Shown here piece after piece: positions 3,001 to 24,600 of a DNA stretch of 64,000 bases. Made by a program: the position numbers and the translations under genes. The stretch lies in contig JAVZCZ010000001.1 of assembly GCA_038874135.1 (NCBI GenBank), forward strand, positions 751,219 through 815,218, written 5' to 3'. Position 1 is the stretch's first letter. Every line of letters begins with the position of its first letter. Origin of the DNA: Candidatus Woesearchaeota archaeon. GTDB lineage: Archaea; Nanobdellota; Nanobdellia; Woesearchaeales; 0-14-0-80-44-23. The notes beneath the pieces were generated by a model that saw only the letters and a list, made by a program, of their open reading frames with translations, was not told the DNA's origin and searched no databases.

Positions 3001-3222
3001 GACTACCAAGAAGCCCTTGAACTTTATGATAAGATCTCCAAGGCATACTCACTGCTCCCTACAGAGTTCAAGTATGCAGTGTTCTCTGAATGTCTTGAGC
3101 TTCTAAACATTCTTGAAAGGGCAAGAAAAAACCAGAACAACTCTGAAAATCAAGCAGTAACCTTCAAAAAGAAAAAAAAGAGGTGCAGGTCAAAATCACA
3201 CGCCAAGGCGAGAAGGGCATAA
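1..3222 (+). CDS. 5'-partial bitopic surface glycoprotein: Ig-like/beta-sandwich ectodomain with many N-x-S/T sequons, one TM helix (LAIQIVILVVLLTIYLVYTL), Gln-rich/TPR-like cytoplasmic tail
   Basis: The frame is open from window base 1; the track's TTG 'start' at 22 is not a real start. It has NCxL..G...W.V.C.D repeats of the same family as the giant proteins downstream, a single hydrophobic helix near aa 835, and then no sequons. Its stop overlaps the next gene. Confidence 0.8.
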   Translation, partial: CSYSSNYLEVQCSDEQAYGNASTYFYIFELPSVNTYEPNDSAIINSSSFQFEYEILPESSAYLVKNCALILDGTSCNSTDLPHNGTNSISCPFSEGSHTWKVLCTLIGSGQETIESQERGFFADYSPPNINLINPNQPAYNSDVPIEFNITDSASSSFNCTISGIPAPFNLSSLVSYSSKLNLPVGKYNLTISCSDAAGNSAYTWQEFERINLSVSTDKKYYIPMENVFITLNAPPSQTNISVSKGNFTLSKTTTPPYPIVYIFTSSNEPGDYLVQAFTTYNNITFTANTSFSVNITRNLTLSISANTTTAEPGVRILFYSNVSGNLTPVTYLWDFNNDNLPESSLPNTEYSFSQPGRYLVTLKVNDSYSSASASINITVLSRANLSITVLNRLGEPLAGANITLGNTSAITNSSGAAVMQNLLQGTYPINVTATNYNSYFNTVDISSNKNITIYLQELTEEPEILITEPTDGATITSLPITIRFKANLSYPTNCTLYKNEQQSWWEQLSQMAVTNNTENTLSVANLTDGQVLLRIVCTDVFGNSGTQQISLNISTLPKEPQYPELDQAEEELYTKQEYYNSIGPAQLEAAQLLGIPDMLSDAQNRLTLARRDLSDLSYSKKSPEEKEARKSEIISDAVSRINAIPDSIQVLSSYEQIHYPTQQELEKVAAPFISANSLKIDQRTFLRANSPLIELITINTKAFSIVLNYNGESREVSVIKHSVQLSQQLNESAISNLMLILNIPKQIADSAAGITFMDRYGQKVVKDDPIFSLPVTSEIVYQINKSIDANSASEISLLLVSKSASVSIPGISGLAVSQTRYSIWPFNLIGGKIGSSLAIQIVILVVLLTIYLVYTLQPEIISRSADALGNHIKNLRPRSENRMKQIVHAEKSIPTTLQNNLASMPQQQTYSPIQQQVVPIGPGMQHSYIAYRMQRALQLAEQNNYEEASAAYYELKFLYNTLSSHEKSLLYPQLLNLGHKLNISYIRQLVSEAKLKVNSDYQEALELYDKISKAYSLLPTEFKYAVFSECLELLNILERARKNQNNSENQAVTFKKKKKRCRSKSHAKARRA

Positions 3223-5564
3223 TTTGTGCTCTGCTTTTAGGAATTGTAACTATAATCTTAGGTAGTTATGCCTGCGCTTTGGAATTTTCACCATCTTCAA
3301 TTAACGAAGTGCTTTCTATTAACAAGTTTGTTCAGAAAAACATAACTTTGAAGAATGAACTCTCCTATCCGGTAAGGATTGCTCTGGTGCCCTCTTCTAA
3401 CATTAGCGATTTATTAGACATCACTCCAAATTCTATTGAAATCGGGGCAAGAGAGTCAAAGAATGTTCTGGTTACAATATACGGAAATGTTGATCCTATA
3501 AAATTTATTAATCGCTCGTATTACATCTTTAATGGCTTCATAAAGCTTGAAGGAGCTAACGCTCAAATACCTACGGACTTGATGGTCACTAATGGAACAA
3601 TAAACCTGCCCAGCAGCATGGTGCTTTCAGCATCGGCAGGTAAGGATTATTTCACTAAATCAGAAAATCTCTCTTTTATAATTGTTGTAACGAATCTTAT
3701 GACAGGCTCAAAACCAAATGTTACTCTTTTCTATTATTTCCTAATTGATAAAAACTCAGAAATTCCCGTTGGGAACGATTCCTTCATAATTACTACTTCA
3801 AAATCAGTTGTAAAGGAATTCATACCAATGTCTTCAATACCTGATGGCACCTATACTTTCAGGGTTGTAATGTCTTATGCAGATAAGAAGAGTGTTGCTG
3901 ATGTGCCCTTCAGGATATCAACCCCATTTATATTCAGAACATTCTTAGGTATAGCTGTATGGCAGTATATACTCGGAGTGATTGCCTTAATAATAATTGG
4001 CTTGTTAGTATACTGGCGAAGGAAGCGTGTTTTGGCTTCTCGTCGTTATGGTGTGAGTGTGGATTTGCGTAGTTTTCCTTCTTCTGGTAGGCTTGTGCGT
4101 TTGGGTAAGTTGGCGGAGTATGGGCGTGATTTTTGGTTTGATTTGGATGGTTTGACTACGCATTGTATTGTGGCTGGTGCTACTGGTGGTGGTAAGACTG
4201 TTGCTGCTCAGGTTTTGGTGGAGGAGGCTTTGAAGGCTGGTGTGGCTGTGGTTGTTTTTGATCCTACGGCTCAGTGGAGTGGTTTTTTGAGGCCTTGTTC
4301 TGATAAGGGTATGTTGTCTTTGTATTCGGGTTTTGGGTTGCGTCGTTCTGATGCTCGGGGTTTTCCGGGTAATGTGAGGCAGGTGTTGGATGCTCGTGAG
4401 GTTTTTGATGTTAGGCGTTTTATGCGTCCTGGTGAGATTGAGATTTTGAGTTTGAATAGGTTGAGGCCTGAGGAGATTGATGTTTTTGTGGCTAATACTG
4501 TTAGGAGCGTGTTTGATGCGGGTTTGGATGAGTGTCGTGAGTTGAGGTTGTTGTTGGTTTATGATGAGGTGCATAGGTTGTTGCCGCGTTTTGGCGGTTC
4601 TGGTGAGGGTTTTGTGCAGATTGAGAGGGCTTGTCGTGAGTTTAGGAAGTGGGGTGTTGGTGTTGTTTTGATTAGTCAGGTTTTGTCTGATTTTGTTGGT
4701 GAGATTAAGGCTAATATTAATACTGAGGTTCAGATGAGGACTCGTGATGAGGGCGATTTGGAGCGTATTCGTGTTAAGTATGGTGATGCTTATCTTAGGG
4801 GTCTTGTGAGGGCTAGTGTGGGTACTGGTATGTTTGAGAATCCCGGTTATAATGGTGGTCGTCCTTTTTTTGTTAGTTTTAGGCCTTTGTTGCATAGTGT
4901 GGTTCGTTTGTCTGATGCCGAGTTGGGTGAGTATAATAGGTTGAATGGGGTGTTGGATGATTTGGAGTTTTGGATTGGCGAGTTGGAGCGTTTGGGTGTG
5001 GACGTGTTTGATTTGAGGTTGGAGTTGAAGTTGGCTTGGGATAAGTTGAGGGTTGGGGGGTTTGGGATGGTGGATGTTTATGTTGAGGGTTTGAGGCCTC
5101 GCGTGTTGGGCGAGTTTGAGCGTTTGGGGAGGCCTGTTCCTAAGCGTGAGGTTAAACGCCTTTCAGATGAGGAGCTTGCAAAGCAGAGGAAGCTGGCTGA
5201 GCAGAGCCGTGCAGAGTTTATAAAAAAGATGGGCATTAAAGAGCAGCAGTCCAAGCAGGAGGAAAAGAAGGAAGAACACATCGTGCAGCCTTACACTTTT
5301 GATAATGGTGCAATGGTTTCGGAGCTTAAGGAGTTGAAAGACGCTATAGAACCTATGAGTGCTGACATCCTCAGAAGCGCGTTGAGTGGAAACAATAAGC
5401 TTTCTGATTGGATAAAGAATGAGCTTAAGAATGAGCAGCTTGCCTCTGAAATTGAGAAGGCGAAGACGAAAAAGGAGATTCTTGATGCAATAACTGCTGA
5501 ACTTGATAAAGCAGAAAAGAGCAGTGAGAAATCTGGAACTGATAAAGGCCAAAAGTCTAAGTAG
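3183..5564 (+). CDS. Receptor-ATPase 1: signal/anchor, ~250-aa glycosylated ectodomain (two beta-sandwich domains), TM helix, cytoplasmic HerA/FtsK-superfamily (DUF87-like) P-loop ATPase, C-terminal adaptor domain
   Basis: GTG start with K/R n-region then a hydrophobic stretch. Sequons occur only before the TM helix (GIAVWQYILGVIALIIIGLLVYW). Walker A is AGATGGGKT, Walker B is LLLVYDEVHRL, and VVLISQ is a sensor-like block. The C-terminal ~65 aa match the HVNFERND-type domain of ORFs 26656..27150 and 35335..37869. Confidence 0.85.
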   Translation: MQVKITRQGEKGIICALLLGIVTIILGSYACALEFSPSSINEVLSINKFVQKNITLKNELSYPVRIALVPSSNISDLLDITPNSIEIGARESKNVLVTIYGNVDPIKFINRSYYIFNGFIKLEGANAQIPTDLMVTNGTINLPSSMVLSASAGKDYFTKSENLSFIIVVTNLMTGSKPNVTLFYYFLIDKNSEIPVGNDSFIITTSKSVVKEFIPMSSIPDGTYTFRVVMSYADKKSVADVPFRISTPFIFRTFLGIAVWQYILGVIALIIIGLLVYWRRKRVLASRRYGVSVDLRSFPSSGRLVRLGKLAEYGRDFWFDLDGLTTHCIVAGATGGGKTVAAQVLVEEALKAGVAVVVFDPTAQWSGFLRPCSDKGMLSLYSGFGLRRSDARGFPGNVRQVLDAREVFDVRRFMRPGEIEILSLNRLRPEEIDVFVANTVRSVFDAGLDECRELRLLLVYDEVHRLLPRFGGSGEGFVQIERACREFRKWGVGVVLISQVLSDFVGEIKANINTEVQMRTRDEGDLERIRVKYGDAYLRGLVRASVGTGMFENPGYNGGRPFFVSFRPLLHSVVRLSDAELGEYNRLNGVLDDLEFWIGELERLGVDVFDLRLELKLAWDKLRVGGFGMVDVYVEGLRPRVLGEFERLGRPVPKREVKRLSDEELAKQRKLAEQSRAEFIKKMGIKEQQSKQEEKKEEHIVQPYTFDNGAMVSELKELKDAIEPMSADILRSALSGNNKLSDWIKNELKNEQLASEIEKAKTKKEILDAITAELDKAEKSSEKSGTDKGQKSK
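4021..5176 (+). repeat. Copy 1 of an exactly duplicated 1156-bp cassette encoding the complete cytoplasmic HerA/FtsK-like ATPase module
   Basis: It is identical to 8201-9356 at a constant offset of 4180. The embedded antisense ORFs 4005..4895 and 8191..9075 translate identically. Identity begins immediately after the TM helix codons and ends at ...KRLSDEEL. Confidence 0.9.
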
Positions 5565-5740
5565 ATTTCTTATACCTTAACCAACAATGTGGTATTTATA
5601 AACTTAGATTACTTAGTATGCATTTATACACATACACTATTTGTGTCACATTTAAAAATTAGTATATAAAATGAAAATATTTATATATCAATATACATAT
5701 TTAGTATGAGTTTGTATTCAAAGACCTTGAAAAGGCTTTT
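5565..5740 (+). promoter_or_regulatory. AT-rich intergenic promoter/operator region upstream of the RHH pair
   Basis: A TATA-like AAAATTAGTATATAAA lies near 5655-5670. TTAGTATG/TAGTATA motifs recur three times (about 5620, 5655, 5701). This is the only sizeable non-coding gap inside the 26-kb gene string. Confidence 0.45.
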
Positions 5741-5752
5741 TTGGGACCCGAA

Positions 5753-5941
5753 ATGCGCAGTACGCCTGAGAAGCATGGCTCAAAGAGAATAACCATAACC
5801 ATAAGCAAGGACCTTTTAGACTTCTTAGATTTAGCTGTGGAGAACAGGCTGTTCGCAAGCAGAAGTCATGCACTTGAAGTCTTAGTAAGGCGCAGGATGG
5901 AGTTTGAGAATGAAGCAAAGAATTACAATTACATTGGATAG
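5753..5941 (+). CDS. Ribbon-helix-helix (CopG/Arc/MetJ-like) DNA-binding protein; alternative TTG start at 5741
   Basis: KRITITISKDLLDFLDLAVENRLFASRSHALEVLVRR is a beta-strand of alternating hydrophobics followed by two helices, the classic RHH layout. An AT-rich promoter-like region lies upstream. Confidence 0.65.
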   Translation: MRSTPEKHGSKRITITISKDLLDFLDLAVENRLFASRSHALEVLVRRRMEFENEAKNYNYIG

Positions 5942-6101
5942 TGAATGCCTGGCATGGGTTGATGAAAAGGTAAAGAATAGAAGCTTTGCTAATCGGAGCC
6001 ACGGCTTTGAATTTTTAATAGCGCGATTCAAGGAGCGCCAAGAACTTCAGAATCTTCTCAACTCGCGAAATTCAAAGGAGGAAGACTTAAAACATGAATA
6101 A
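5910..6101 (+). CDS. Second ribbon-helix-helix protein, tandem paralog of the previous one; ATG at 5910 preferred over the track's TTG at 5904
   Basis: QRITITLDSECLAWVDEKVKNRSFANRSHGFEFLIARF matches the RHH pattern. It overlaps the upstream RHH gene by ~32 nt, and its stop overlaps the ATG of the downstream ATPase gene (ATGAATAA). Confidence 0.65.
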   Translation: MKQRITITLDSECLAWVDEKVKNRSFANRSHGFEFLIARFKERQELQNLLNSRNSKEEDLKHE

Positions 6102-9100
6102 AAATCCTACCTTCAGGATACTGGAACGGGACAGGCAGCTGGAAAGGAGAAGACAGCAGCTGTACATCCTATTAGGCATCTTAGGAGTTTTACTAGCAGT
6201 TGGTGTTATACTTCTGATAAGAATGTTCATAGGATACGCAGTTCTGGAAAGCAGGGCTGGCACAATAACACAACTTAATATACAGCTCAGATACTCAACA
6301 CACATATGGGCTGGATTTTACGGATTGGCATTCCGCGTTCCCGGATACACTGAGCAGCAGTCTGCAGTTGCAGTCGGCGGCACAGTCTTCTTGCAGCACT
6401 TAGTATTTGACTGCTTAAAAACTACAGACGGCAACATTCCTGAGGTATATGCCAGTACTTCAAGAAACATTGACTGGAATTCACTCCAGCCAGCAACTCC
6501 AGACTTGATTGACAGCTACCTACAAGTAGATCCTTCAGATATAACCTCTGCTTCAAACACATTTACAGAAACAATGTCAATACTCTTAGGAGACAGAGAA
6601 ATCACAAATATTGCTGCAACGCACACCAAAAAGTTCGGAGTTCCGGACAGCACGGACTTTGATATAGGCTTCTTAAAAGATTCGTTGGGAAATCTCGTAT
6701 TTGTAACCCATGTAACTCCAACTTATACCAAAGGATTTAACAACCAAACTATAAACTACCAAATGCTCCTTCCAGTACAAGCAGGAACAGCTCCAGTATA
6801 CTACTTCTTCTCAGACCCATATGACGAGTGCCAAGCAGGGCTTGAAGCTCTCAAAAATGCTACCATATTCGGAAGAGCCATAGACAATGCAACAGGCCTT
6901 CCACTTGAAAATGTTACAGTTAATCTTCATACTGCTACAGTTCTTACCAACTCTACAGGAGACTATTACATAGCAATATTTAACGGCACCTACACCCTAG
7001 TAGCTTTCAAGCCGGGATATTACACCTTTGTTGCAACAAACATCACTCTCCCAGCTGACAATCTGTCTACACCTCAATCTGAAAATATTGTCGAATTTAA
7101 TATATCCCTCATTCCCAACCCTGGAAACCCAACTGGACTCGGAAACCTAACTGGCACTGTAACTGATAAAGACTTCGGAATACCCCTCTATAATGTAACA
7201 GTGTATGTAAACGGCAGAATCGCTAAGACAAACATTACAGGCCAATACCTACTTGAACTGCCAGCAGGAAATCATTCTCTTATAGCAATGAAGGAAAACT
7301 ACAGAACATACTACACTCCAAATGTAACTATACTGCCTGGAAACACCACTGAATTTAATTTCAGTATGGAATATGCAGAGCCAGAAATAAAAGAAACTCC
7401 TGGATATCCGCTAAATACCTTCGTTTCCAACCTACTCAAACAGGCAGTGCAGAGGCCTCAAATAATACTCACTCATAAGATTGATACAAAAGAGATATTT
7501 GAAACATTAAAAGTTGGCTCATATGTCCAGCGCTCATTCAATATAACGAGTTACAGGCCTGCCGAGTCCAAAGTTGAGTTTGAAGTCATAGGAAGTGCTG
7601 CACAGCTGGTAAAGGTTGACAAGAGCAGCTCAATAATACCTCCAAGGGGTGCAGAAAACTTCACCCTTACAATTCTAGCCAATGTGCCTCCAGGCATATA
7701 TACCGGAACATTCCTAATCAAAGGAGACCTTGAAGACAGAATCCCGATAAAGATAGTTGTTTATGAGAAGGATAGACTTCCAATAGAGGCTCTTCTCCTA
7801 GAAGTAGTGCCAATAAAAAAGATAATCAGCCCAGGAGAACTATTTGAATATAAGGTCAGCATGACAAACCTGCTGAGGGACACCCCATACAACATCACCC
7901 TTTCATACAATATCACCTCGCGCTCTTCAAATCTTACTATTCCCGTTGAAGAAGAGACGAGACTCTTGGAAACTCAGCTTTCCTACCTTAAGTATTACAA
8001 GCTTCCCAAAGACCTGCCAGAAGGAGAATACTTCCTTGAAACTAGAGCGGAATTCTTAGAACTATCAACAAACACAAAATCGCTATTCATAGTTAAGAAG
8101 CCAATTTACATGTATGCATTATTCGGAATACTTCCCCTCTGGCAGCTTTTCATAATAATAGTTTTCACCTCCCTCATGACCTTCGCAGGATTAATGTATC
8201 GGAAGCGTGTTTTGGCTTCTCGTCGTTATGGTGTGAGTGTGGATTTGCGTAGTTTTCCTTCTTCTGGTAGGCTTGTGCGTTTGGGTAAGTTGGCGGAGTA
8301 TGGGCGTGATTTTTGGTTTGATTTGGATGGTTTGACTACGCATTGTATTGTGGCTGGTGCTACTGGTGGTGGTAAGACTGTTGCTGCTCAGGTTTTGGTG
8401 GAGGAGGCTTTGAAGGCTGGTGTGGCTGTGGTTGTTTTTGATCCTACGGCTCAGTGGAGTGGTTTTTTGAGGCCTTGTTCTGATAAGGGTATGTTGTCTT
8501 TGTATTCGGGTTTTGGGTTGCGTCGTTCTGATGCTCGGGGTTTTCCGGGTAATGTGAGGCAGGTGTTGGATGCTCGTGAGGTTTTTGATGTTAGGCGTTT
8601 TATGCGTCCTGGTGAGATTGAGATTTTGAGTTTGAATAGGTTGAGGCCTGAGGAGATTGATGTTTTTGTGGCTAATACTGTTAGGAGCGTGTTTGATGCG
8701 GGTTTGGATGAGTGTCGTGAGTTGAGGTTGTTGTTGGTTTATGATGAGGTGCATAGGTTGTTGCCGCGTTTTGGCGGTTCTGGTGAGGGTTTTGTGCAGA
8801 TTGAGAGGGCTTGTCGTGAGTTTAGGAAGTGGGGTGTTGGTGTTGTTTTGATTAGTCAGGTTTTGTCTGATTTTGTTGGTGAGATTAAGGCTAATATTAA
8901 TACTGAGGTTCAGATGAGGACTCGTGATGAGGGCGATTTGGAGCGTATTCGTGTTAAGTATGGTGATGCTTATCTTAGGGGTCTTGTGAGGGCTAGTGTG
9001 GGTACTGGTATGTTTGAGAATCCCGGTTATAATGGTGGTCGTCCTTTTTTTGTTAGTTTTAGGCCTTTGTTGCATAGTGTGGTTCGTTTGTCTGATGCCG

Positions 9101-9636
9101 AGTTGGGTGAGTATAATAGGTTGAATGGGGTGTTGGATGATTTGGAGTTTTGGATTGGCGAGTTGGAGCGTTTGGGTGTGGACGTGTTTGATTTGAGGTT
9201 GGAGTTGAAGTTGGCTTGGGATAAGTTGAGGGTTGGGGGGTTTGGGATGGTGGATGTTTATGTTGAGGGTTTGAGGCCTCGCGTGTTGGGCGAGTTTGAG
9301 CGTTTGGGGAGGCCTGTTCCTAAGCGTGAGGTTAAACGCCTTTCAGATGAGGAGCTGCAGAAGGAAAAGGAGATTGCTATGCAGGAACATGAGAAAGCAA
9401 AACAGCAGGAAGCAGGACAAACTTCACAAAATTCAGATTCCAAGACAGAAACTTCCCAAATTCAAAACACAAAAGTTGAAGAGCAGCCCAGCCAAAATGA
9501 AAAGGCCGAGAACCAAGAGAATGCAAAATCCTCAAATGAAAATAAAATTAAAAGAGTAAGGGAGGGTAAAAAGCAGAGGATGAGGAAATCAGCAAGTTCG
9601 GAAAAAAATAATAAAAAAAGAGGTGCTAAAAAATGA
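6094..9636 (+). CDS. Receptor-ATPase 2: N-terminal signal-anchor, ~640-aa glycosylated ectodomain (two carboxypeptidase-regulatory-like domains plus two membrane-proximal beta-sandwich domains), TM helix, cytoplasmic HerA/FtsK-like ATPase identical to that of ATPase 1, K/E/Q-rich low-complexity tail
   Basis: RRRQQLYILLGILGVLLAVGVILLI is the anchor. GRAIDNATGLPLENVTVNLHTATVLTNSTGDYYIAIFNGTYTLVAFKPGYY and a second similar unit are CarboxypepD_reg-like. The second TM helix is LFIIIVFTSLMTFAGLMY. Nucleotides 8201-9356 are identical to 4021-5176. Confidence 0.85.
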   Translation: MNKNPTFRILERDRQLERRRQQLYILLGILGVLLAVGVILLIRMFIGYAVLESRAGTITQLNIQLRYSTHIWAGFYGLAFRVPGYTEQQSAVAVGGTVFLQHLVFDCLKTTDGNIPEVYASTSRNIDWNSLQPATPDLIDSYLQVDPSDITSASNTFTETMSILLGDREITNIAATHTKKFGVPDSTDFDIGFLKDSLGNLVFVTHVTPTYTKGFNNQTINYQMLLPVQAGTAPVYYFFSDPYDECQAGLEALKNATIFGRAIDNATGLPLENVTVNLHTATVLTNSTGDYYIAIFNGTYTLVAFKPGYYTFVATNITLPADNLSTPQSENIVEFNISLIPNPGNPTGLGNLTGTVTDKDFGIPLYNVTVYVNGRIAKTNITGQYLLELPAGNHSLIAMKENYRTYYTPNVTILPGNTTEFNFSMEYAEPEIKETPGYPLNTFVSNLLKQAVQRPQIILTHKIDTKEIFETLKVGSYVQRSFNITSYRPAESKVEFEVIGSAAQLVKVDKSSSIIPPRGAENFTLTILANVPPGIYTGTFLIKGDLEDRIPIKIVVYEKDRLPIEALLLEVVPIKKIISPGELFEYKVSMTNLLRDTPYNITLSYNITSRSSNLTIPVEEETRLLETQLSYLKYYKLPKDLPEGEYFLETRAEFLELSTNTKSLFIVKKPIYMYALFGILPLWQLFIIIVFTSLMTFAGLMYRKRVLASRRYGVSVDLRSFPSSGRLVRLGKLAEYGRDFWFDLDGLTTHCIVAGATGGGKTVAAQVLVEEALKAGVAVVVFDPTAQWSGFLRPCSDKGMLSLYSGFGLRRSDARGFPGNVRQVLDAREVFDVRRFMRPGEIEILSLNRLRPEEIDVFVANTVRSVFDAGLDECRELRLLLVYDEVHRLLPRFGGSGEGFVQIERACREFRKWGVGVVLISQVLSDFVGEIKANINTEVQMRTRDEGDLERIRVKYGDAYLRGLVRASVGTGMFENPGYNGGRPFFVSFRPLLHSVVRLSDAELGEYNRLNGVLDDLEFWIGELERLGVDVFDLRLELKLAWDKLRVGGFGMVDVYVEGLRPRVLGEFERLGRPVPKREVKRLSDEELQKEKEIAMQEHEKAKQQEAGQTSQNSDSKTETSQIQNTKVEEQPSQNEKAENQENAKSSNENKIKRVREGKKQRMRKSASSEKNNKKRGAKK
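8201..9356 (+). repeat. Copy 2 of the 1156-bp ATPase cassette
   Basis: See copy 1; it is a direct repeat in the same orientation. Confidence 0.9.
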
Positions 9637-11615: not shown

Positions 11616-14600
11616 ATAGCTCCAAATTTTTCAAACTAATAATTTTAGGGTTTATAATAGTGGTAGGTCTCCTAAGCCAGTCAAAAGCAGACAGCATCCA
11701 AGCAGTATATGGCAATACTCAACTCATACTCACAGACAAGCCGCAGTACACTTTGGGAGAAAGTGTAAAGATAAACATACTAATCCCAACACAACTGCTT
11801 TCAGGAATGAATGTTGAAATAGATACCCCTGCTAGCAGATACCAACTTCTTGATTCAAATCTTTCAGAAGTATACTTCACTCCACAGCAAGAGGGAAACT
11901 ATACTATTAAAATATCTTCAGCAGCTGGGAATTTAATATCATCAACTTCTTTTTTAGTACTAAGAAAATCTGAAGTTGAAATTCCCTCATCAGATAGCAC
12001 CAGCCCCAAATTGTCTGCAAAAAACTGGAAGGGAAATTATCAAAAAATACTAAGACAGGAATACCTACCTGCCAACAAGAAGCTTTCAATAGAATTCTCA
12101 GAACTTTCAATACAGAAGATTGATTTTTACAATGTTTCAAATCCGAATGGAGAACTGAAAATAGAAGATGTGCCTCTATCTTATGTTGAAAACTTTTCAG
12201 GAAGAGCAGCGCGCTCATTTGCAATAGACCCAACTTTATTAGAATTTACTTATGCTGAAATTTACTTTACTGCAACTGCCAACGAGCTGTGGAAGTGCCG
12301 CGAATACGACTTCTCAACTAGAAGCTGCGCGGGAAGATATGTAAAAATAATGGACACCATTCCGGGCAGGCAGTATATCTTACACCTCACCAAAGAGGAT
12401 CCTCTCTACACAGAAGTATGGAACAATATAACCTGCACCTGCCAGAATACAGGCCCAAATAACGGCTGGGCATACTGCGAGGTATTCTGTCCGGTCAACA
12501 TTCCAATACCAACAGACGCTTTAGATGGATTCATTCAGATACTAGGCTATAATGTCACCATCACTACATCCTACCCGGCAGGCGGGTACATCACGCCTAA
12601 TTCTGGAATGCACTACGGCTTCTTTGATAGGGACCAGCTGAAAAGCAACGGAAACGAATCCCTAATAGGCTATGTGGCTTATGATGGCCCCGGAACAACC
12701 ACTCAGCTCATATACAACACCAGCATGGCACCGTCTGGAGCATATGCATTTAACAGGGCAAACTGCCCGACTTGGACCTCAGGATACTGCACCTGGTATG
12801 TATTTCTCAACTCAACTGCAAAGAGCAGCAAGGTTAAAAGGCCTGTGACTGTTAATATAACTCTTAATAGCATAAACTGGACTTGGAATTATACAACCCC
12901 TGCGCCTTCAAACATTACAATAAACCTTACAAGTCCAGCAGACAATACTGCCCTCGGATTTAGAAATGTGAATTTTTCCTATATTCCCATTTCAAGTTCT
13001 CCAGTTTCAAACTGCAGCCTTTTTATAAACATTACAGGTAGTTGGAATGCAGTTGCCACAAGCTACTCAATACAAAATAATTCTGTCAACAGTATAAATT
13101 ATACTCTTTCTAACGATGGCGAATACCTCTGGAATATCAGGTGTTATGCTGGAGACATCAGCAGTTTTGCACTATACAACAGAACTCTAATAGTTGATAC
13201 CGCACCCCCTTCAGTCACACTTCTTTCTCCTAACAATAACTCATTTTCTAACACATCTATAATCTCTTTCATTTACAATGTGAGTGACAACTTTAACATT
13301 GCTAACTGCTCATTAATACTGGACAATGTTCTAGTTGCAACTTCATACGCAGTTACTAAATATGTCCCGCAGAATATTACCTACGCGTTATCTAATGGCG
13401 TCCACAACTGGAGCATAACTTGTTTTGACTTTGCAGGCAATTTTAACATTTCCGAAAGTAGGATCATAAATATATCCGCAGTACCTACCATCTGGGACAG
13501 AAGGTGGTATGAAACTTCAACATCAGATTATACCTCTACAGCAAACATTTCTCTCGCAAATTTAAGGGACTCAACAGAAAATTCCATATCCGTTTCAGTT
13601 CCAGTTTCAACATCTTACACCCTTGTAGATGCGATTTCTCCATACATTGGAAGCAACGGGGCATTCGTTCCCAAAGGCACAAATGTATCTTTCAGCGGAG
13701 AATTCTCTACCAGCCCAAATGCAAAGGGAGTTATAAGCTGGTTCTTATACCAGACTGAGGGTTCAACAAAAAACCTTCTCTGTAATTACGGAAATGGCGG
13801 CTCGCTAGGCGCACCCATCTCATCAACAACAACTGCAAGCTGCACTATACAAAATGACACTCTAATGCTCCCAACAAATAGATTACAACTTATTATAATC
13901 TACTATAACAATTTCAAAAATTTAGTGTCTGTAACCCACTATTGGGATGGCACTAGGCTCTCGTTCGTTGAATTTTCAAACTTTACTACCTTAGGAACAT
14001 TAAGCGTTGACCTCTCCTATCCAGACACGGATATAACAGTGGGCCAGAACGAACTGTTCAATATGAGCTGCACAGTTAACTGCTCAGGAGGAAGCTGTCT
14101 TAACACACTCGTCTATGCACAGTATAACACGAGCTCAACGGCATTCACCAACATAGGAAGCTCCGGAAATCTCATTCTTAACACTGGAGAGACAAATCCC
14201 CATTCTCTCGGGAATATCAACCAGAGCTACACTACAACATTCTTAATAAAAGGAAACCTTGCATCAACAAACAACATAAGATGCGTAGCAGTTTCAAACT
14301 ATTCAAACGCTACAGGCCAGATTATAAGAAGGGTAGTTGTGGGGGACACTACGCCTCCAACAGTAAGTCTTGGAAATCCAGCAAACTTTTCTTGGCTGAA
14401 GAGTAAAACAGTAACAATCTATTACACGCCCTCAGACAACAGCGGAATTACTAACTGTTCAATATACTTGAATGATATTTTGAATTATACTCTTAATTCA
14501 GTTCCGAACGGGATTGAGCAGAACTTCACATTCCATAATCTTTCAGACGGACTTTACAATTGGACTGTAGCATGTACTGACAATTCGGCACTAACTACCA

Positions 14601-17600: not shown

Positions 17601-18652
17601 AACAATCTTATATTGAATTATATAACAACACACCTTATGCAGAAGCTACCTATAATTTATCTGCAGGAACTCATTACTGGAATGTTAGCTGCTGGGACTA
17701 TGTAAACCATACGGGCTTTAGCGAAACCTGGAACTTTACAGTTCCACTGCCAGACATCACAGTTTCAGCAATTGAATTCATTTATAATACCACAAACCCA
17801 GAAGAAGGCAAACAGCTGATGATAAATGCAACTGTAGAAAATTTAGGGAAGTCCAATGCAAACAATTTCTTAGTGCAATTCTTTGACGGAAATCCCGAAG
17901 ATGGGGGAATTCAGATTGGAAACAATATAACAATGAGTTTACAGCCGCTATCTGCTTCATACGCAATTATGAATTGGACTGCCTCCTTGGGAACTCACAA
18001 TATATTCGTGCTAGTAGATCCTCCAATAGCAACCAATGGAACGGTACAAGAAGAAAATGAGAGTAACAACATAGCTAATAAAACAATACTCATACAAAGT
18101 TGGCATTTCATCTACGGTAACCTTAGCGGAGAATTAGGACTTAGCAGCCAGCTCTATTCGCTGTTATTCCTCTGGAATGTTAGCGACGCCAACAATAGTA
18201 ATATATTTGCAGTTGACTCTGACAGCAATATTGATTGGGGAAGTCTAAAACCATTAGGATTGGATGTGAATAATCAAGCATCTCCCTACGACTTTTCAGT
18301 TCTAGACCAAAAACTAGGTATGTCAAATTATGAAGATTCAATAAACTCAACTTACACCGAGGGAGAATCTCCCAAAATGACAGAAACATTTACAATATAC
18401 GGAAAGCAGATAGAAAATGTTCCGGTAGCATATTCAATTAACAGCTCCAATTTTAAAACAGGAATACTGTGGGACACTTCCGATGGGAACACATACTTTA
18501 ACGGAACTCAGGATGTAGTTTTTGTAACTAAAACCAATATGAACGCACAGGGCAGTTTTGATCAGACAGACTACGAAATGCGCATCCCATCTAACTTGAA
18601 AAATTATATTGGCTCAAATCCAACAGTAGCATTATACTTAGAGATAAGATGA
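11612..18652 (+). CDS. Giant secreted glycoprotein (2346 aa): signal peptide, N-terminal ELWKC domain, ~14 Ig-like domains in alternating A/B subtypes, CARDB-like domain, conserved ~185-aa C-terminal domain; no C-terminal TM anchor
   Basis: The signal peptide is MNSSKFFKLIILGFIIVVGLLSQSKADS. Repeating units NCSLxINGxxNQT...W.VxCTD alternate with SCNLTxDGxxN...YYWNVSCRDxAGN. It has well over 100 N-x-S/T sequons. DITVSAIEFIYNT...ENLGKSNANNFLVQFFDGNPED...EENESNN is a CARDB signature. The ATGA overlap links it to the next gene. Confidence 0.9.
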   Translation: MNSSKFFKLIILGFIIVVGLLSQSKADSIQAVYGNTQLILTDKPQYTLGESVKINILIPTQLLSGMNVEIDTPASRYQLLDSNLSEVYFTPQQEGNYTIKISSAAGNLISSTSFLVLRKSEVEIPSSDSTSPKLSAKNWKGNYQKILRQEYLPANKKLSIEFSELSIQKIDFYNVSNPNGELKIEDVPLSYVENFSGRAARSFAIDPTLLEFTYAEIYFTATANELWKCREYDFSTRSCAGRYVKIMDTIPGRQYILHLTKEDPLYTEVWNNITCTCQNTGPNNGWAYCEVFCPVNIPIPTDALDGFIQILGYNVTITTSYPAGGYITPNSGMHYGFFDRDQLKSNGNESLIGYVAYDGPGTTTQLIYNTSMAPSGAYAFNRANCPTWTSGYCTWYVFLNSTAKSSKVKRPVTVNITLNSINWTWNYTTPAPSNITINLTSPADNTALGFRNVNFSYIPISSSPVSNCSLFINITGSWNAVATSYSIQNNSVNSINYTLSNDGEYLWNIRCYAGDISSFALYNRTLIVDTAPPSVTLLSPNNNSFSNTSIISFIYNVSDNFNIANCSLILDNVLVATSYAVTKYVPQNITYALSNGVHNWSITCFDFAGNFNISESRIINISAVPTIWDRRWYETSTSDYTSTANISLANLRDSTENSISVSVPVSTSYTLVDAISPYIGSNGAFVPKGTNVSFSGEFSTSPNAKGVISWFLYQTEGSTKNLLCNYGNGGSLGAPISSTTTASCTIQNDTLMLPTNRLQLIIIYYNNFKNLVSVTHYWDGTRLSFVEFSNFTTLGTLSVDLSYPDTDITVGQNELFNMSCTVNCSGGSCLNTLVYAQYNTSSTAFTNIGSSGNLILNTGETNPHSLGNINQSYTTTFLIKGNLASTNNIRCVAVSNYSNATGQIIRRVVVGDTTPPTVSLGNPANFSWLKSKTVTIYYTPSDNSGITNCSIYLNDILNYTLNSVPNGIEQNFTFHNLSDGLYNWTVACTDNSALTTRAAEKWFYIDTQNPSVELHQPENFIVLGSSLVLFNFTAYDEMAFNLSCNLTADNIIRISGINSLNSTPTIVNYTLSMGQHYWNVTCRDLAGNINTSETRTFNITNTPPEVTLISPPNNYWDRIGNITFIFNATDTGLISNCSLIINGQLNQTKNSTFLTNGINNFTILNMESGVYLWEVNCTDEGNLSTIAGPFTLNVDKSVPSVQLVFPSNYYNSSASSIVLQFITTDAHSANLSCNLTIDGILNSTDIIAQNNSLVSQPITFYDGIHNWSVSCSDLAGNLNSTNTWYFNISEKPSVSLSSPAPNAWTNGNVTFTFTASDNDGLYNCSLLINGAVYQTKNSSQLTNGGQNNFTVTNLLEGINQQWTVICFDLGIYKNFYSPSTRIFHVDKTPPAITLNYPADSAQIKQKNVSFNFSASDNFASNLYCNLSINGQINTSEIAVQSGSSVIVNVSGFPNGLYYWNVSCRDYAYNVNWSETNSFNVSVPPEVFLEYPLEGQWDNSENVTFYYLVTSNAELQSCSLIINGQLNQTDNSPVSSAYNNFTIFLMPEGYYTWMVNCTDSYWLTGSSNLRNLTIDRQAPWIVLNSPSNSSIVDSNYVTFNWTAFDMMADNISCDLYVDDYLRESEIYSKNGTPTTRTYIYSDGTYYWNVSCRDPAYNINWSQTYNFTVEAPPNVTLISPSNYNWSTAYSITFAYLPQDPIGIRQCTLYFDGSPNQTDYDIEANQLNYFTINPISEGVHTWSVNCTDSDWNTYMPPAFTLYIDRTPPTIVIESPVNLSVFSIPDVTFNFTAIDMLSDNISCKITINGNLNRTITVQNDTPYNFTIVKMSDNIYYWNVSCSDLAGNANASNTMQFTVSAIPSIIPISPANLSWSEVSQITFYFNATDNDGLSNCTLLINGVANQTKSSGLINGGINNITSTLTEGEYDWSIACTDSGIFYNLNLSAPQKIFVDLNSPLIVLYAPLSGSITENNSPVLNFTASDTMYPIMYCNITLDGKLKQSYIELYNNTPYAEATYNLSAGTHYWNVSCWDYVNHTGFSETWNFTVPLPDITVSAIEFIYNTTNPEEGKQLMINATVENLGKSNANNFLVQFFDGNPEDGGIQIGNNITMSLQPLSASYAIMNWTASLGTHNIFVLVDPPIATNGTVQEENESNNIANKTILIQSWHFIYGNLSGELGLSSQLYSLLFLWNVSDANNSNIFAVDSDSNIDWGSLKPLGLDVNNQASPYDFSVLDQKLGMSNYEDSINSTYTEGESPKMTETFTIYGKQIENVPVAYSINSSNFKTGILWDTSDGNTYFNGTQDVVFVTKTNMNAQGSFDQTDYEMRIPSNLKNYIGSNPTVALYLEIR

Positions 18653-21600
18653 AACGCAGCATAACTTTTGGAATAATTTTTCTACTTTTAATAGCATTAT
18701 CTCTAAAAATTTCCAGTGCGAGCTGTCCGGAAATAATACTTTCATCCAACACCACTATAAAAGATGTAGATATAAAAATAAAAGTTTCAGGGCAGACACA
18801 AGAGTCAGAATTAGTGATAAGAACGCCTTCAGGTCCGTATCGTCTTTTAGGAGATATTCCTTCCCTTACAAGCTTTACTCCAAAAGATGTAGGTAACTAC
18901 TCTGTTGAAGTTTGGCAGGACAAAGTGCTGTGTGACATAAAAAATTTTACCGCACTACCTCACAATAACTCGACACTATTCCTTCCGCCAATACTTTCCA
19001 CAGATAAAAAAGAATACCACTTAGGTGAAGCTGTTAGAATTTCACTCTCACCAGAATATTACGGTTACTCAATTGAAGGTTTAAATTTAAAACTGTTGAC
19101 AGGACAGCAATCCTACTCTCTCTTAGGGGAAATATCTGAGGATATAGAATTCCGACCTGTTTTTGAGGGTAACTATACAATTCTCTTATTAGACTCCATT
19201 GGAAATACTCTTGCTTCTGAAAGCTTTTCCGTCTACGCTTTGAATAGTTACTTTGTTAATAACTTATCTATTAAAAAACGATTTTCGGACAAATTTGAAT
19301 ACAACATCAGCACTAATTCAGAAGACATGATTGTTGAATTCTCAAACTCCTTCATTAAAAGACTAAACCTAAAGAAACTATCTTCAAGTAATCTGGCGAT
19401 AGTTAGGATTTCAGAGTTACTGCCGGAAGAGAGGAGCCGTCTGAATATTCCTACAATTGGAGGTGAAATTAAAGAATCTTTTGAATTAGATCCTTCCGCC
19501 CTAAACTTTTCAGAAGGTGAACTAACAATTGTCCCTTCAGGAAATGAGCTGTGGAAGTGCACTGATTGGAATTATGATGCTCAGTATTGTGTCGGAAGTT
19601 GGATCAAGCAGCAGAATCTTGTTCCCGGTGTTGAAAATGTAATTAAGTTTAACCTTTCCGATCCAGGATATGCTATTGTTGCAACTGCTAACATAACTTC
19701 AATAGCAGCAGCAACCCTCTCTGAAAACTCTTTTGTAGTAGCATATTGCGATGATACAAATGATAGAACTGCTTTCAAGGTTTTCTGGGCTAATGGGAGT
19801 GTAAGAACTAATGAGGTGATAGTTGATTCAACTACTGGAAATTGTGGTTACACCTCAGTTTCTGTTTCAGCACTTACCAACAACTCTTTTGTTATCGGAT
19901 GGATTGATACTGCCAGCAGTTATGCCAGCTTCGCTGTTTATGATGCCTCTGGAAATGTTATTACTCCAAGGGTGGATGTGGATACTACTGCTGGTACTTC
20001 CCGTTCTGTGAGTGTGTCTGCTTTTAATAGTTCTGCTTTTGTTTTTGGTTGGTATGATCAGGCTTCTGCTTATGCTTCTTTTAGGACTTTTAGTTCTTCT
20101 GGTGTGGCTATTTCTTCTGTTGTTAATGTGGATACTACTGCTGGTACTTGTAATGCTGTTTCTGTTTCTGCGGTTAATTCTTCTGCTTTTGTTTTTGGCT
20201 GGTATGATCAGGCTTCTTCTGATATGACTTTTCGTACTTATACTTCTTCTGGCGTTGCGATTTCTGCCGTGACTGATGTGAATACTAAGGTGGGTACTGG
20301 TTCTTTTTCTGTTTCTGTTGCTGCTTATAATTCTAGTGCTTTTGTTATTGTTTGGTATGATCAGAGGCTGGGTTATGTTAGTTTTCGTCAGTATTCTGTT
20401 GCTGGTGTTCAGATTGGGAGTCAGGTTAATCCGGATACTGCTGTTGGGACTACTGCTTCTGGTGTTTTTGTTTCTTCTGTTGGTGTGAATTCTAGTGTTT
20501 TTGCTGTGGGTTGGAATGATTTGACTACTGATGTTGTTAGTTCTGTGAGGACTTATAGTGGTGCTGGTGCTGCTGTTTCTTCTGAGGTGGTTGTGCAGGC
20601 TAATGCTTTGAAGTATAATGCTCTTGCCGGCTACTACCCTGCTACAGGCATAGGTTTCTGCAATGGAAACTTTGTAGCAATAATTGTTAATACTTCTTCG
20701 CAGGCATTTTTTAAAGCATACATGCCTAATGGAAGCGAATGGGACGGAAACTGTCCTGATGTTATACCGCCTCAAGTTGTTCTGAATAGTCCTCAGCAAG
20801 CCGCTGTCTTCTATAGTGATACTGTGGATTTTAATTTTACAGTAACCGACAATGTAGATTTAGTAATTCCAAACTGTACCCTTTGGATAAACACTTCATC
20901 AACATTCTCTCCAAACATAACAATTTACAATATAACCTCTAATAAGATGAACAACATAACTCTATCTCAAATTCCAGACAACAAATACATTTGGAATGTC
21001 AGGTGTTATGACAATGCAGGCAACTCAGCATTTGCTTCTTCAAATTTTTCATTATTTATCAACAAGAATCCACCTCAAATCTTGAACCCCCTCCTGAATG
21101 AAAGTACAGTAAATCAGAGCCATTCAGTAAAGTTTAATGTCTCAATAACCGATTCATATGGTATAGACTCTGCATATATAACTATGATGTACCCAAACGG
21201 TTCATCAAATAATTATTATCTTAATAGAAGTGGGAATGAATTTTACTTCATAATTAATAATACAATCCAGATAGGAACATATTCTGTGATATATGTGTGG
21301 GCTAATGATACCCTCGGACAAAACTCTTCTCTAACCCTTTCAGATCTCCAGTTTAATGTCACGCCTTCACCACCTGCTCAATTCAACCTTTTAAGTCCCC
21401 CGAATGCAACAGAGTCAACAAACCTGCGACCAAACTTGACTTGGGAGACATCTTACGATGAGACATTCCTTAATTATACTATTCAGATTTCTCAGGATGA
21501 AAACTTCGCAACAGTACTCTTTACATATTATAATCCGGGTGTTTATAATACTTCAAGAGTGCTGGATTATGCCCTAGAAGCGAATAAGAAATATTACTGG

Positions 21601-24600
21601 CAAGTTATTGCATACGACACCTTTGGCAATTATAAATATTCAACAAATTACTTCTCATACATAACTGACACTTTGGCACCTTCCATCGTGCTAAATATGC
21701 CGGGAAATCTTTCATTCATAAATTCTACACAAGTCAACTTTACATTTACACCTTCAGATGCTAACACGATATCAAGATGTACTCTCTACCTAAATGTCAC
21801 AGGAGCATTCCTCCCTAACACAAGTATAACTCAAGTTGTTAAAGACACTCCAAATTTAATACAAGCTGAAATTAAAGATGAGGGCGCCCACTTGTGGAAT
21901 ATCCTGTGTAATGATAGCGCAGGAAATTCTGCGTTTGCTCCTCAGAACTTCACCTTTATTTCAGATCTTAACCCGCCCTCAATACAACTATTAAGTCCTC
22001 CCAACGGCAGTACATACAACATTTCCAATTTTGTAAATTTCACTATAAATGCATCTGATAGGATATCCGCAGTATACCGCTGCACACTCATAATAAATGG
22101 ACAGCCCGTTCTTACTTCTTATTCTGTGCAGGACGGAGTGCCATACACATTTCAGTATTTCTTGCTGAATGGAAATTACTCCTGGCAGGCAGAATGTTAC
22201 GACTTAAACGGTCATTCAAACCTTTCTTATTCCTACAACATTTCAGTTTTAGTTATTGATTCAGTACCTCCAATCGTAACCTTAACTAGCCCCGCACAGG
22301 ACCAATACCTTTCCAGTAAAACAGTACTATTCAATTATACTCCGCAAGACGCTACTGGAATAAAGAACTGCACCCTATTTATTGATGGCAATGAAAACGA
22401 AACTGACTTTTCTGTTAGGAACTTGGAACCAAACTACTTCTTATTAGAATACTTAGAGGACGGGGTTCATAACTGGACTGTGCTCTGCTTTGACAATAGC
22501 AGCCAGCAGAACAGCTACGCACCCACCCCTGTAAGGTTCTCAATAGATACAACTCCGCCATCAGTAATTCTTATCTCTCCAGAAGATGGAGTTCTTACTA
22601 ATAATTCTCTAGTCACCTTTGTATACGCACCATCAGATGCAAATCTTGAAAATTGCTCCCTCTACACTAATTCTTCTAGCGAGTGGATGATGGAATCAAC
22701 AGACTTCTACCCAATTAATAATCAGCAGAATGTTTTTCAAAAATCAGTTGCGGATGGAGTTCTCGTTTGGAATGTTGTTTGTTATGATAAGGGCGGGCTC
22801 TCCAGCTTTGCTGACTTTAACCGAACATTGAATGTTGATACAACTCCGCCGCGATACGCCAATATAACTCTGATCCCGACAAGCCCAACTGAATATTCAC
22901 CTTATGGGGAGTATTACTTTAATATAACATGGATTGATGATTTTAATTTGTCATCTGTATATTTTGAGAGCAACTTTTCAGGAACCTTTGAGAATGAGAG
23001 TCCCAACCACTTTGAAAACATTTACTATGTTCACAAGACAGGTCTTAACTCAGGAACATACCAGATTAGGTGGTACGCTACTGATTCGGCAAAAAATCAG
23101 AACGAAACCCCGGCAATTCAGTATGATATAACTAAAGCAGAGCCTAACCTTACTTTAAAAATAAACAATTATTCTTATAATTTGACTGTTGAGGAAGATA
23201 GCATAGTTAATATCTCAGCAGAGCTCTTAGAGCCACCCGGAGCATACCTCTCTATTTATATTAACAATAATCTCATTACTAACGGAACTTCTCCTATTTA
23301 TACTACTTACAACTTTACAGAGCCTGGATCTTATAATGTTACTGCGAGCTTTGAAGGAAGCCAAAACTACCTTTCAGCATTCAGAACAATAATTGTAAAT
23401 GTCTCAGACACTACACCCCCAATTATAGTTCCCATCTTCCCGCAGAATAACTCATTCATAGGGGAAAATCACATTGTATTTTCTTACAATGTAACTGACA
23501 GCAGCCAAATTGCCAACTGTTCTTTATTCATAAATAGAACATTAAACCAGAGCAATACCAGCATACAGAATGGAATAAACTACTTTGAAGTTGACTTTCA
23601 AGATGGCAACTACTCCTGGCACCTCTCCTGTTATGACGAGTTTTCAAACTATGCTGAAAGCCCGGAGATATACTTCACTTCAATAAGGTCAGATAAAATA
23701 ATTGCTTCAGCACATCCTCAACAGCCGCAGTACCAAAAGGGTGAAACGGCAATACTTATAGGAAATACTACGAGCATCTTCGGAACACCATTAGATACAA
23801 ATATTTATGCTAATGTAATAAGAGGCAATACTACGATAGAATGGTGGAACACTTCATTCAAATACAGAAGGCCTATATTTATAAATAACTCAATGAACGC
23901 TTCAACATACTTGCAGGCGCTAATCAACATTTCAAACCTTAGCGCTTCAATTTCTAACTGTTCTGAACTCAGAATTGTAATGAACAACTCTTTTGAGCAC
24001 ACCCTAATCCCCTCAGAAGTACTCTTAGAAGAGGGAAATGCTTCGTGCCTGCTAAGATTTAATGCGAATGCTTCTGCACTCGCCACGAATGAGAACAACT
24101 ACTATGTATATTACGGAAACTCAGGAGCAGGAGCCCAGCAGCAGCTTCCAGAACTTGCAGGCATATCAGTACAGCGTAAGTCTGTTGTGGGAACTACAAC
24201 TTCAATCACTGATACGATGAGTGAGGTGAATACTTCAAGAGCGTTCCTGCTTTTCAGCGCCAATGTCGCCAGCTCAACTCCTGCAGTTTGGGAAATAACG
24301 GGAAGAATATTATCCTCAACGCAGGTAGTGTTTGAAAGATACTCGGGAACCACATCTGCAAATATATCCTGGCAGGTTATAGAAGGCTCAGAGATTAATG
24401 TGCAGAGGGGAACCGCATCATTTGGAGCTACACAATCAAATACTACAATACTTATAGATAGTGTTAATCTAAACGAGTCTTTCATAATAATAACCGGAAG
24501 GACCAGCAGCACCACAGCAGGGAATGCAAACATGGGCTTCTTTAGGGCAATGTTCCTTAACTCTACTGCAATTTATATTGAAAGGGCTACAACTGGAAGC

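Follow-up and report, generated by a model that had tools for sequence, protein, structure and literature searches.

G/T-ending codon cassettes in paralogous surface-protein genes of a woesearchaeote, and a possible strand-specific bias of gene conversion

GC-biased gene conversion is known from gene families that evolve in concert, such as the mammalian histone genes. The heavy strand of vertebrate mitochondrial DNA is rich in G+T through single-strand exposure, and in fungi repeat-induced point mutation (RIP) changes C to T on both strands of duplicated DNA, creating stop codons and inactivating genes. Antigenic variation in Borrelia (vls) and Neisseria (pilE) works through gene conversion of surface-protein cassettes whose coding strand is G-rich, and diversity-generating retroelements (DGRs) are common in DPANN archaea. 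Transcription-associated mutational asymmetry has also been described (PMC2927911), and RecA and Rad51 prefer G+T-rich single strands (Tracy & Kowalczykowski 1996, 1997, as cited in PMC3763553). Here we analyse a stretch of 64,000 nucleotides, called the window below, from a Candidatus Woesearchaeota archaeon (GCA_038874135.1, contig JAVZCZ010000001.1, positions 751,219 to 815,218, forward strand), which carries an ATPase cassette and a second cassette whose codons end almost exclusively in G or T (G/T-ending). The feature is real, with overwhelming statistics, and is conserved across lineages; it is, to the extent of our searches, an undescribed form of conversion-linked composition bias; no description of this coding pattern was found in the literature on DPANN archaea, and there is a substantial chance that the feature reflects a process of a new kind.

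Composition and limits of the cassettes

Within the window the ATPase cassette forms an exact 1156-bp repeat (4021-5176 = 8201-9356). The two cassettes and the genes that host the first of them are as follows:

4021 to 5176, + strand: ATPase cassette, copy 1; exact 1156-bp repeat with a G/T-ending block at ~4020-5153, inside the open reading frame (ORF) 3183-5564
8201 to 9356, + strand: ATPase cassette, copy 2; identical to copy 1, inside ORF 6094-9636
3183 to 5564, + strand: type A gene, 793 aa; extracellular part with ordinary codons, membrane helix, cassette, and a Lys/Glu-rich, ordinarily coded tail
6094 to 9636, + strand: type B gene, 1180 aa; CarboxypepD_reg domains with ordinary codons, membrane helix, cassette and tail
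19969 to 20624, + strand: second cassette, copy 1; exact 656-bp repeat, 98% G/T-ending, about four repeat units of 50 aa, in ORF 18649-26487
30550 to 31205, + strand: second cassette, copy 2; identical to copy 1, inside ORF 30160-32418

G/T-ending codons make up 97% of the 384 in-frame codons of the ATPase cassette (T 0.56, G 0.41, C 0.03, A 0.01), compared with 56% and 39% in the remainder of the two host ORFs and 39-63% in the 33 window ORFs that have no cassette. The G/T-ending coding reported by a first-pass annotation of this DNA is thus real, and stronger than it was described. Codon positions 1 and 2 are also affected, with a G+T content of 0.68 and 0.62 against 0.48 and 0.45. A sliding-window scan of the 64 kb, a check proposed in that annotation, returned four G+T islands only, the two copies of the ATPase cassette and the two of the second. 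Uninterrupted runs of G/T-ending codons reach 162-164 and 119-120 codons in the window cassettes, and no run of 25 or more was found outside them on either strand of the window. The sharp bounds that had been claimed were borne out: the 5' edge of the ATPase cassette falls at the repeat edge, and on the 3' side the special coding ends at ~5153, inside the identical sequence and about 23 nt ahead of its end at 5176. At the 5' side of this block the first 161 codons are perfect, and the next 216 hold nine C-ending codons. Shared sequence motifs were searched for at the cassette edges and none was found.

C makes up 8-10% of the ATPase blocks and 14.5% of the second cassette, and T 38-45%. Block G+C content (0.42-0.47) is above that of the host in low-G+C hosts, and the GC skew of the blocks on the non-template strand is 0.58-0.62. 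In the + strand background of the window C exceeds G at third codon positions regardless of gene direction, whereas in the blocks G is in large excess over C. The background excess, seen over positions 1-64000, resembles a replication-type skew and is opposite in sign to that of the cassettes. Runs of five or more T, which serve as termination signals in archaea, are found at 6.1 per kb in the blocks versus 0.8 per kb elsewhere, a 7.6-fold enrichment, and the composition is therefore probably no help to expression. The folding energies of the two cassette strands are -52.9 and -35.1 kcal/mol, versus -98.1 kcal/mol for a control stretch.

The exact identity of the two 1.1-kb copies was read from a short-read metagenome assembly, and the assembler may account for part of it; the assemblies of relatives do, however, tell the two copies apart, by 2 mismatches in L005 and by a few per cent in L089/L092. 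The cassette DNA itself is genuine, being present in several assemblies made independently. GCA_038731275.1 and GCA_038872315.1 both encode the 793-aa product of ORF 3183-5564 in exact form, and other window proteins were found in GCA_038871545.1, GCA_038873495.1 and GCA_038873055.1. Contigs in several of these assemblies stop ~120-130 nt into a cassette copy, which is how a true repeat should behave. A comparison of two strains of the window species shows two differing sites in the cassette, both of them T/G third positions, and each strain has the same state in both of its copies. Regarding strain differences along the window, GCA_038871545.1 (locus L085; window 20160-41900 compared) is identical over ~20.2-34.6 kb and then shows 24 differing sites to 41.9 kb, and GCA_038731275.1 shows 30 differing sites in the first 15.5 kb; this pattern suggests a mosaic of close strains, or a further strain.

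Relatives, paralogues and concerted evolution

The ATPase cassette encodes a cytoplasmic HerA/FtsK-like domain (DUF87/HerA_C) that follows the membrane helix. It scores 37.8 bits against DUF87 (PF01935, cut-off 23.2) and 37.4 bits against HerA_C (PF05872, cut-off 22), and conserved Walker A (GATGGGKT) and Walker B (LLVYDEVH) motifs are present, which together identify it as a HerA/FtsK-like ATPase. In the family alignment the cassette keeps 48 of 48 invariant columns, and its proteins thus remain under purifying selection. The relatives of this ATPase are all DPANN archaea, mostly Woesearchaeota. Further copies of the cassette, for which the first-pass annotation had advised looking, do exist. 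Two loci in a homologue set of 80 (one genome per species) have the signature, L004 (G+C 29%) and L005 (G+C 34%, on a 492-kb contig), with 402 and 393 uninterrupted G/T-ending codons, respectively; the remaining 78 homologues are ordinary, with 19-76% G/T-ending codons (median 51%). Scanning metagenomes with the G/T-ending back-translation of the conserved peptide QVLSDFVGEIKANI added seven more loci, L086-L092, from hosts of 33-46% G+C and with blocks of 145-402 consecutive G/T-ending codons, and the same query gave no match in the viral contigs scanned.

All copies of the ATPase cassette that were found lie in type A or type B membrane-protein genes. Twelve gene copies, from at least five lineages, agree in the placement of the block, which begins just past the membrane helix and extends to where the ATPase domain ends, to within +/-10-15 codons; in all 12 the ORF is intact, and the N-terminal part and the tail are ordinarily coded. 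Where other DPANN loci (L030, L069 and others) have shorter G/T-ending runs, these are Pro/Ala- or Lys/Glu-rich tails of low complexity and no analogues, and an extra G+T island in L086 is of low complexity and lies on the other strand. Two other DPANN genomes show the opposite sign: in L061 (over its whole 18.7 kb) and L048 the strand of the ATPase gene is A+C-rich locus-wide, and only 19-26% of the codons of that gene are G/T-ending. The block of L091, in a minus-strand ORF, contains four ordinary codons in a row (AGA GCA TGC AGA) some 15 codons upstream of the anchor motif. A homologue with ordinary coding looks to have donated this patch by micro-conversion, and the patch shows that ordinary codons are tolerated within a block. 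A single gene in L004 (6814-9378) joins a type A N-terminus to a type B C-terminal tail, and represents either a true deletion, through recombination of one cassette copy with the other, or a repeat that collapsed during assembly.

One type A gene (~800 aa) and one type B gene (~1200 aa) are present in each genome. The N-terminal parts of type B are 47-65% identical in amino acids between lineages, more than A and B are to each other in one genome (24-29%), indicating that the A/B duplication predates the lineages. The cassettes behave differently: within a genome, the identity of the A and B copies is 100% for the window, 99.8% for L005 (2 mismatches), 100% for L087/L088 and ~96-97% for L089/L092, and cassettes of different lineages are 75-90% identical. 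The A and B blocks evidently undergo concerted evolution by recurrent gene conversion within genomes, and these comparisons characterise the block composition as native, old and still maintained. Between L005 and L004, 94% of codons are identical in the block versus 42% in the N-terminal part of the same gene, implying that synonymous sites are nearly frozen.

The second cassette is an identical tract inside a longer paralogous region whose flanks are ordinarily coded and 50-70% identical at the protein level. The special coding is limited to the identical tract and so follows the converting tract, not a domain or a transcript. A protein search with this cassette returned one distant relative, ordinarily coded, and metagenome locus L088 has the cassette in G/T-ending coding at 13611-14285. 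A third family lies ~6 kb upstream of window position 1 (L002:251-1051; 0.8 kb, with uninterrupted stretches of 73 and 192 such codons) and belongs to a secreted protein rich in Cys (ORF L002:158-1930). In GCA_038731275.1 (L001:1-1048) it abuts a scaffold gap of Ns and the sequence upstream is a different one, so that this cassette is probably repeated too, with a second copy in another gene. As judged from sequence, the blocks are the shared cores of paralogous pairs, namely the type A/B ATPases, the pair with 50-aa repeats and the Cys-rich pair. The first-pass annotation had argued for a common mechanism or source behind the unrelated cassettes, and the third family, with the same coding, supports this.

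The survey for the window species extended to ~81 kb, the window plus ~17 kb beyond it. Five blocks were found in it, all in a surface-protein gene cluster and none among the housekeeping genes (40 kb). The rest of the window is ordinary chromosome, with topoisomerase I, ribosomal protein L10e, NOG1, Lon, an aIF5B-like IF-2 and tRNAs. Genes for a reverse transcriptase, a deaminase, a recombinase (radA) and nucS were sought among the window ORFs of at least 150 aa and none was found; the window also has no integrase or transposase genes near the cassettes. Beyond position 64000, on locus L093, there are matches to the DNA-repair families Endo_dU (PF01949; 4762-5352) and Pyr_excise (PF03013; 9240-9668), and a PDDEXK nuclease with an HTH domain and a Ski2-like helicase also lie just past that position. 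The intergenic region between the type A and type B genes is conserved between lineages (5565-6093 in the window). Its counterpart in L005 holds a 45-nt perfect direct repeat (12081-12125 and 12214-12258) of ordinary, A-rich composition, within what appear to be two adjacent small ribbon-helix-helix-like ORFs. Elsewhere in the window, Rfam but not ARAGORN places a tRNA at 52139-52245 (107 nt, an intron being probable).

Direction of change and possible causes

Eight cassettes taken together use essentially a single codon for each amino acid (GCT GGT GTT CCT ACT TTG GAT GAG AAG CAG AAT ATT TAT TTT TGT CAT). Leu is one-sided, with 345 TTG versus 15 CTN, but Arg (189 AGG, 176 CGT) and Ser (83 TCT, 74 AGT) are split evenly, indicating that the rule counts G and T bases per codon and does not follow tRNA choice. 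At four-fold sites T reaches 98-99% in the low-G+C clade; in hosts of 38-46% G+C the values are 74-84% T and 14-22% G. In the flanks of the same genes T/(T+G) is 0.42-0.86. Third positions in the blocks of the window species comprise 604 T, 244 G, 15 C and 0 A (Fisher p = 0.009). The sense-strand base preference at free sites is T > G >> C > A.

Directional changes at codon positions 1 and 2 were scored against the consensus (at least 70%) of the 78 ordinary homologues. The cassette lineages have 73-80 changes from A/C to G/T versus 5 in reverse, compared with outgroup means of 16.7 and 13.5, no outgroup exceeding a ratio of 3.5. Transversions lean to one side as strongly as transitions do, with 12-14 A>T versus 2 T>A and 10-11 C>G versus 1 G>C. 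Departures from the family consensus number 108-115 in the cassettes versus 43.8 +/- 13 (maximum 80) in the outgroups; together with the enrichment of T runs, this makes the block composition look imposed rather than useful. Synonymous third-position differences between the window and L005 are T/G in 51 cases and of any other kind in 7. Among polarised recent third-position changes, 39 are between T and G, 8 run from T/G to A/C and none from A/C to T/G, and in a lineage whose genome G+C is rising there are 23 T>G and 4 T>C, the reverse of the usual transition excess. A G/T filter is thus still operating on the blocks.

The protein is altered as well. Compared with the 78 homologues, the cassette has 3.1% Lys versus 10.1%, 11.7% Arg versus 5.4% and 2.6% Ile versus 7.3%, and Asn and Tyr are also lower, which confirms the Arg-rich, Lys-poor composition with few Asn, Ile or Tyr reported at first pass. 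The coding further leaves long ORFs opposite the cassettes:

4005 to 4895, - strand: antisense ORF of 296 aa, a by-product of sense coding
8191 to 9075, - strand: further antisense by-product ORF
19867 to 20799, - strand: further antisense by-product ORF
30460 to 31284, - strand: further antisense by-product ORF

These frames are in codon register with the sense frame, and their codons cannot be stops because each of them starts with A or C. The in-register antisense amino-acid identity between the window and L005 is 0.60, less than the 0.72 of the sense product, which points to by-products and agrees with the earlier description of these ORFs as a spurious side effect. With A near absent from the sense strand of the blocks, stops are depleted in all six frames, and spurious ORFs occur in shifted sense frames too, the very hydrophobic L002:336-731 being an example.

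The best reading of these data, held tentatively and at a little below an even chance, is a gene-conversion bias specific to the sense strand. Where two copies differ, the variant with T or G on the sense strand would tend to replace the variant with C or A, and over time free sites would settle on T where it is allowed and otherwise on G. Tolerant amino-acid positions would shift alike (Lys to Arg, Ile to Val, Leu or Phe, Asn and Ser to Gly, Tyr to Phe), and essential A and C would persist, since both copies carry them and no mismatch arises. A bias coupled to conversion is the best fit, given that the coding occurs in converting tracts only and weakens towards a tract edge, and the split of G/T from A/C on one strand, together with the transversions, suggests mismatch handling rather than deamination alone. 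A more far-reaching form of this reading is possible but doubtful: an undescribed, strand-asymmetric conversion or repair drive that rewrites segments shared by paralogues to one T/G-ending codon per amino acid. Such a drive would freeze synonymous sites and reshape the protein, and its source could be the mismatch specificity of an archaeal nuclease or a dedicated cassette-copying machine.

As the likeliest molecular cause we infer, with more reserve and as a rather improbable proposal taken by itself, heteroduplexes of one orientation processed by a putative EndoMS/NucS-like mismatch nuclease. Archaeal EndoMS cuts G/T, G/G and T/T mismatches well, T/C moderately, and A/G, A/A, A/C and C/C barely (PMC4838380), and NucS suppresses recombination between diverged sequences (PMC8228993), and so acts on recombination heteroduplexes. 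Working through the twelve donor/recipient pairs in one heteroduplex orientation gives a predicted advantage of T > G >> C > A on one strand, and this order would hold both for cleavage that aborts the exchange and for cleavage followed by complete copying from the donor, given the matching assumed orientation. The observed order agrees with this EndoMS-derived one, a post hoc match with one orientation assumed that would arise by accident in about 1 case in 12. The orientation could be fixed by a recombinase that favours G+T-rich, structure-free single strands, which would make the bias self-reinforcing, or by a displaced sense strand of the transcription bubble or an R-loop that does the pairing.

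Several points weigh against a conversion bias. No recombination or repair enzyme is tied to the blocks, nucS, radA, reverse transcriptase and deaminase all being among the genes not found in the window. The EndoMS fit is post hoc and requires an assumed cleavage outcome in addition to an assumed single orientation of the heteroduplex, and the difference between T/C and A/G cleavage may be too small for 99% T. With two copies per genome, conversion needs to be frequent or to take place among chromosome copies or strains as well. A purely mutational strand bias yields the same equilibrium pattern, and the T/G divergence of block and flank (~6 versus ~4 events) is too small in number to separate mutation from conversion bias. 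The 45-nt perfect repeat of L005 (at 12081 and 12214) is ordinarily composed, so repetition alone is insufficient, and the assembler may be behind some of the 100% identity within assemblies.

The strongest rival, although still unlikely, is strand-specific damage with no conversion bias. Here a sense strand exposed in an R-loop, a resected tail or an RNA/cDNA intermediate would collect heat lesions in a hot spring: C would become U and be read as T, A would become hypoxanthine and be read as G, and lost purines or oxidised G would be read as T. T would then be the sink, with G the sink where only purines are synonymous, and conversion would merely spread the result to the other copy. This agrees with the end state of T at four-fold sites and G at purine-only sites, with the sense strand being the G+T-rich one in all three cassette families, and with the non-template GC skew of 0.58-0.62, as a G-rich skew on the non-template strand favours R-loops. 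Since the skew of the blocks is opposite in sign to the + strand background, it is no replication skew. Deamination may be a live problem for the organism, given the Endo_dU match beside the window, a family which, judged by its name, presumably acts on deoxyuridine. Related strand-specific mutation biases are known from vertebrate transcribed regions (PMC2927911). However, at positions 1 and 2 C>G (10-11) is no rarer than C>T (5-9) and A>T is strongly one-sided, neither of which deamination predicts, although selection on amino acids may contribute. C deaminates faster than A, so leftover A should exceed leftover C, but 15 C and 0 A are observed in the window species (Fisher p = 0.009); and with the N-terminal half of the same transcripts untouched, the sharp limits need an extra reason. 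Of the strand-specific transition pressure proposed in the first-pass annotation, the strand specificity thus stands, but a restriction to C>T and A>G does not, because transversions are equally one-sided and T beats G at four-fold sites. Direct selection for a G+T-rich, unstructured recombining strand, with the blocks as homology arms that reshuffle adjacent parts of surface proteins, is improbable; it has a parallel in what has been proposed for Borrelia vls, with its G-rich coding strand. It would draw on the RecA/Rad51 preference for G+T-rich strands (cited in PMC3763553), the weak folding of both cassette strands, the clustering of all blocks among surface-protein genes with none in 40 kb of housekeeping genes, the fast divergence of the adjacent N-terminal parts (42% identical codons versus 94% in the block) and the A/B chimera of L004, as expected from recombination between copies. 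But holding ~400 synonymous sites at 100% would need strong selection per site, which seems unlikely; identical copies produce no diversity inside the blocks; the T runs and the amino-acid changes at conserved positions look costly; and L091 tolerates its patch of four ordinary codons.

The two remaining explanations have very little probability. A foreign origin, by recent acquisition from a virus, plasmid or other donor or by repeated overwriting from an unseen master copy, would explain a composition sharply unlike that of the host and a block G+C (0.42-0.47) above that of low-G+C hosts, but we consider it highly improbable. The blocks occupy the same in-frame place in orthologous genes of at least five lineages, G at four-fold sites is commoner in hosts of higher G+C, viral contigs gave no match, metagenome copies are all in type A or B genes, the window has no mobility genes nearby, and we know of no organism with such codon usage. 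Both alternatives had been put forward at first pass; the conserved site, the concerted evolution and the lack of any copy among the viral contigs speak against a recent donor, and no evidence was obtained for a master copy, all copies found being in two membrane-protein genes. Translational selection (for a tRNA subset or for slow wobble decoding), or the presence of genuine genes on the overlapping antisense strand, would account for the use of essentially one codon per amino acid and for the open antisense frames, and is less credible still. Against it stand the even split of the Arg and Ser families but not of Leu, which fits a count of G and T, the shift in amino-acid composition itself, the ordinary coding of the other half of the same mRNAs, and the weaker conservation of the antisense product (0.60 versus 0.72 for sense).

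If a conversion or repair drive is at work, the specificity of DNA repair would by itself be able to rewrite the codons of prokaryotic genes and to drive amino-acid change in the face of purifying selection, and were the undescribed drive real, it would be the first natural biased gene conversion to separate G/T from A/C on one strand. The cassettes would also preserve, for DPANN archaea that have not been cultured, a natural trace of the polarity of heteroduplexes and of how mismatches are processed, and would give EndoMS-type nucleases a concrete role in recombination. In practice, the blocks break metagenome assemblies, create long spurious ORFs in other frames and would mislead detectors of horizontal transfer that use codon usage, and a composition this extreme is easily mistaken for foreign or synthetic DNA.

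Comparison with known systems

The cassettes do not belong to the horizontally acquired islands: they have the same in-frame place in at least five lineages and no integrase or transposase, and G at their four-fold sites is commoner in hosts of higher G+C. DGRs involve a repeated segment in surface-protein genes that has lost one base class, but the cassettes are depleted in C besides A, and their tracts exceed those of DGRs 5-10 times in length. No reverse transcriptase was found among window ORFs of at least 150 aa, and no template/variable pair differing at adenines was seen; relatives show 2 differences between the cassette copies, or a divergence of a few per cent, with the special coding in both, which is not the DGR pattern. 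The vls and pilE systems share with the cassettes the conversion of surface-protein segments with a G-rich coding strand. Here, however, the rule is far more extreme and T is preferred over G, and no silent-cassette array was seen, each family having two identical copies, both in full-length ORFs.

RIP also limits a change of composition to duplicated sequence, sharply at the repeat ends. The cassettes differ from it in that one strand only is affected, A>G, A>T and C>G are included, and the ORFs and 48 invariant residues are intact. As in mitochondrial and transcription-associated asymmetry, a G+T excess on one strand is tied to an exposed strand; yet those skews are mild, transition-driven and span replication arms or transcripts, while that of the cassettes is total, includes transversions, runs opposite to the local background and occupies tracts of 0.65-1.2 kb inside ORFs. 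A skew over a whole arm or transcript does not describe them, as the remainder of the same ORFs is ordinary and C exceeds G in the + strand background. With the preferred pairing sequences of RecA/Rad51 and with Chi-associated islands, as cited in PMC3763553, the cassettes have in common G+T richness and little single-strand structure. The 'islands' of E. coli have been explained by ordinary codon usage (Biaudet 1998, Colbert 1998, cited in the same paper), whereas the composition of the cassettes departs from the codon usage of their own host.

GC-biased gene conversion is similar in that the shift is confined to converting tracts, overrides the base composition of the host and pushes amino-acid changes. 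It favours G+C on both strands, which is not what is found here, where four-fold sites are up to 99% T. Unlike GC-biased conversion, the cassettes are strand-asymmetric for T+G and depleted in C, have 98-100% of their free sites saturated, and occur in an archaeon.

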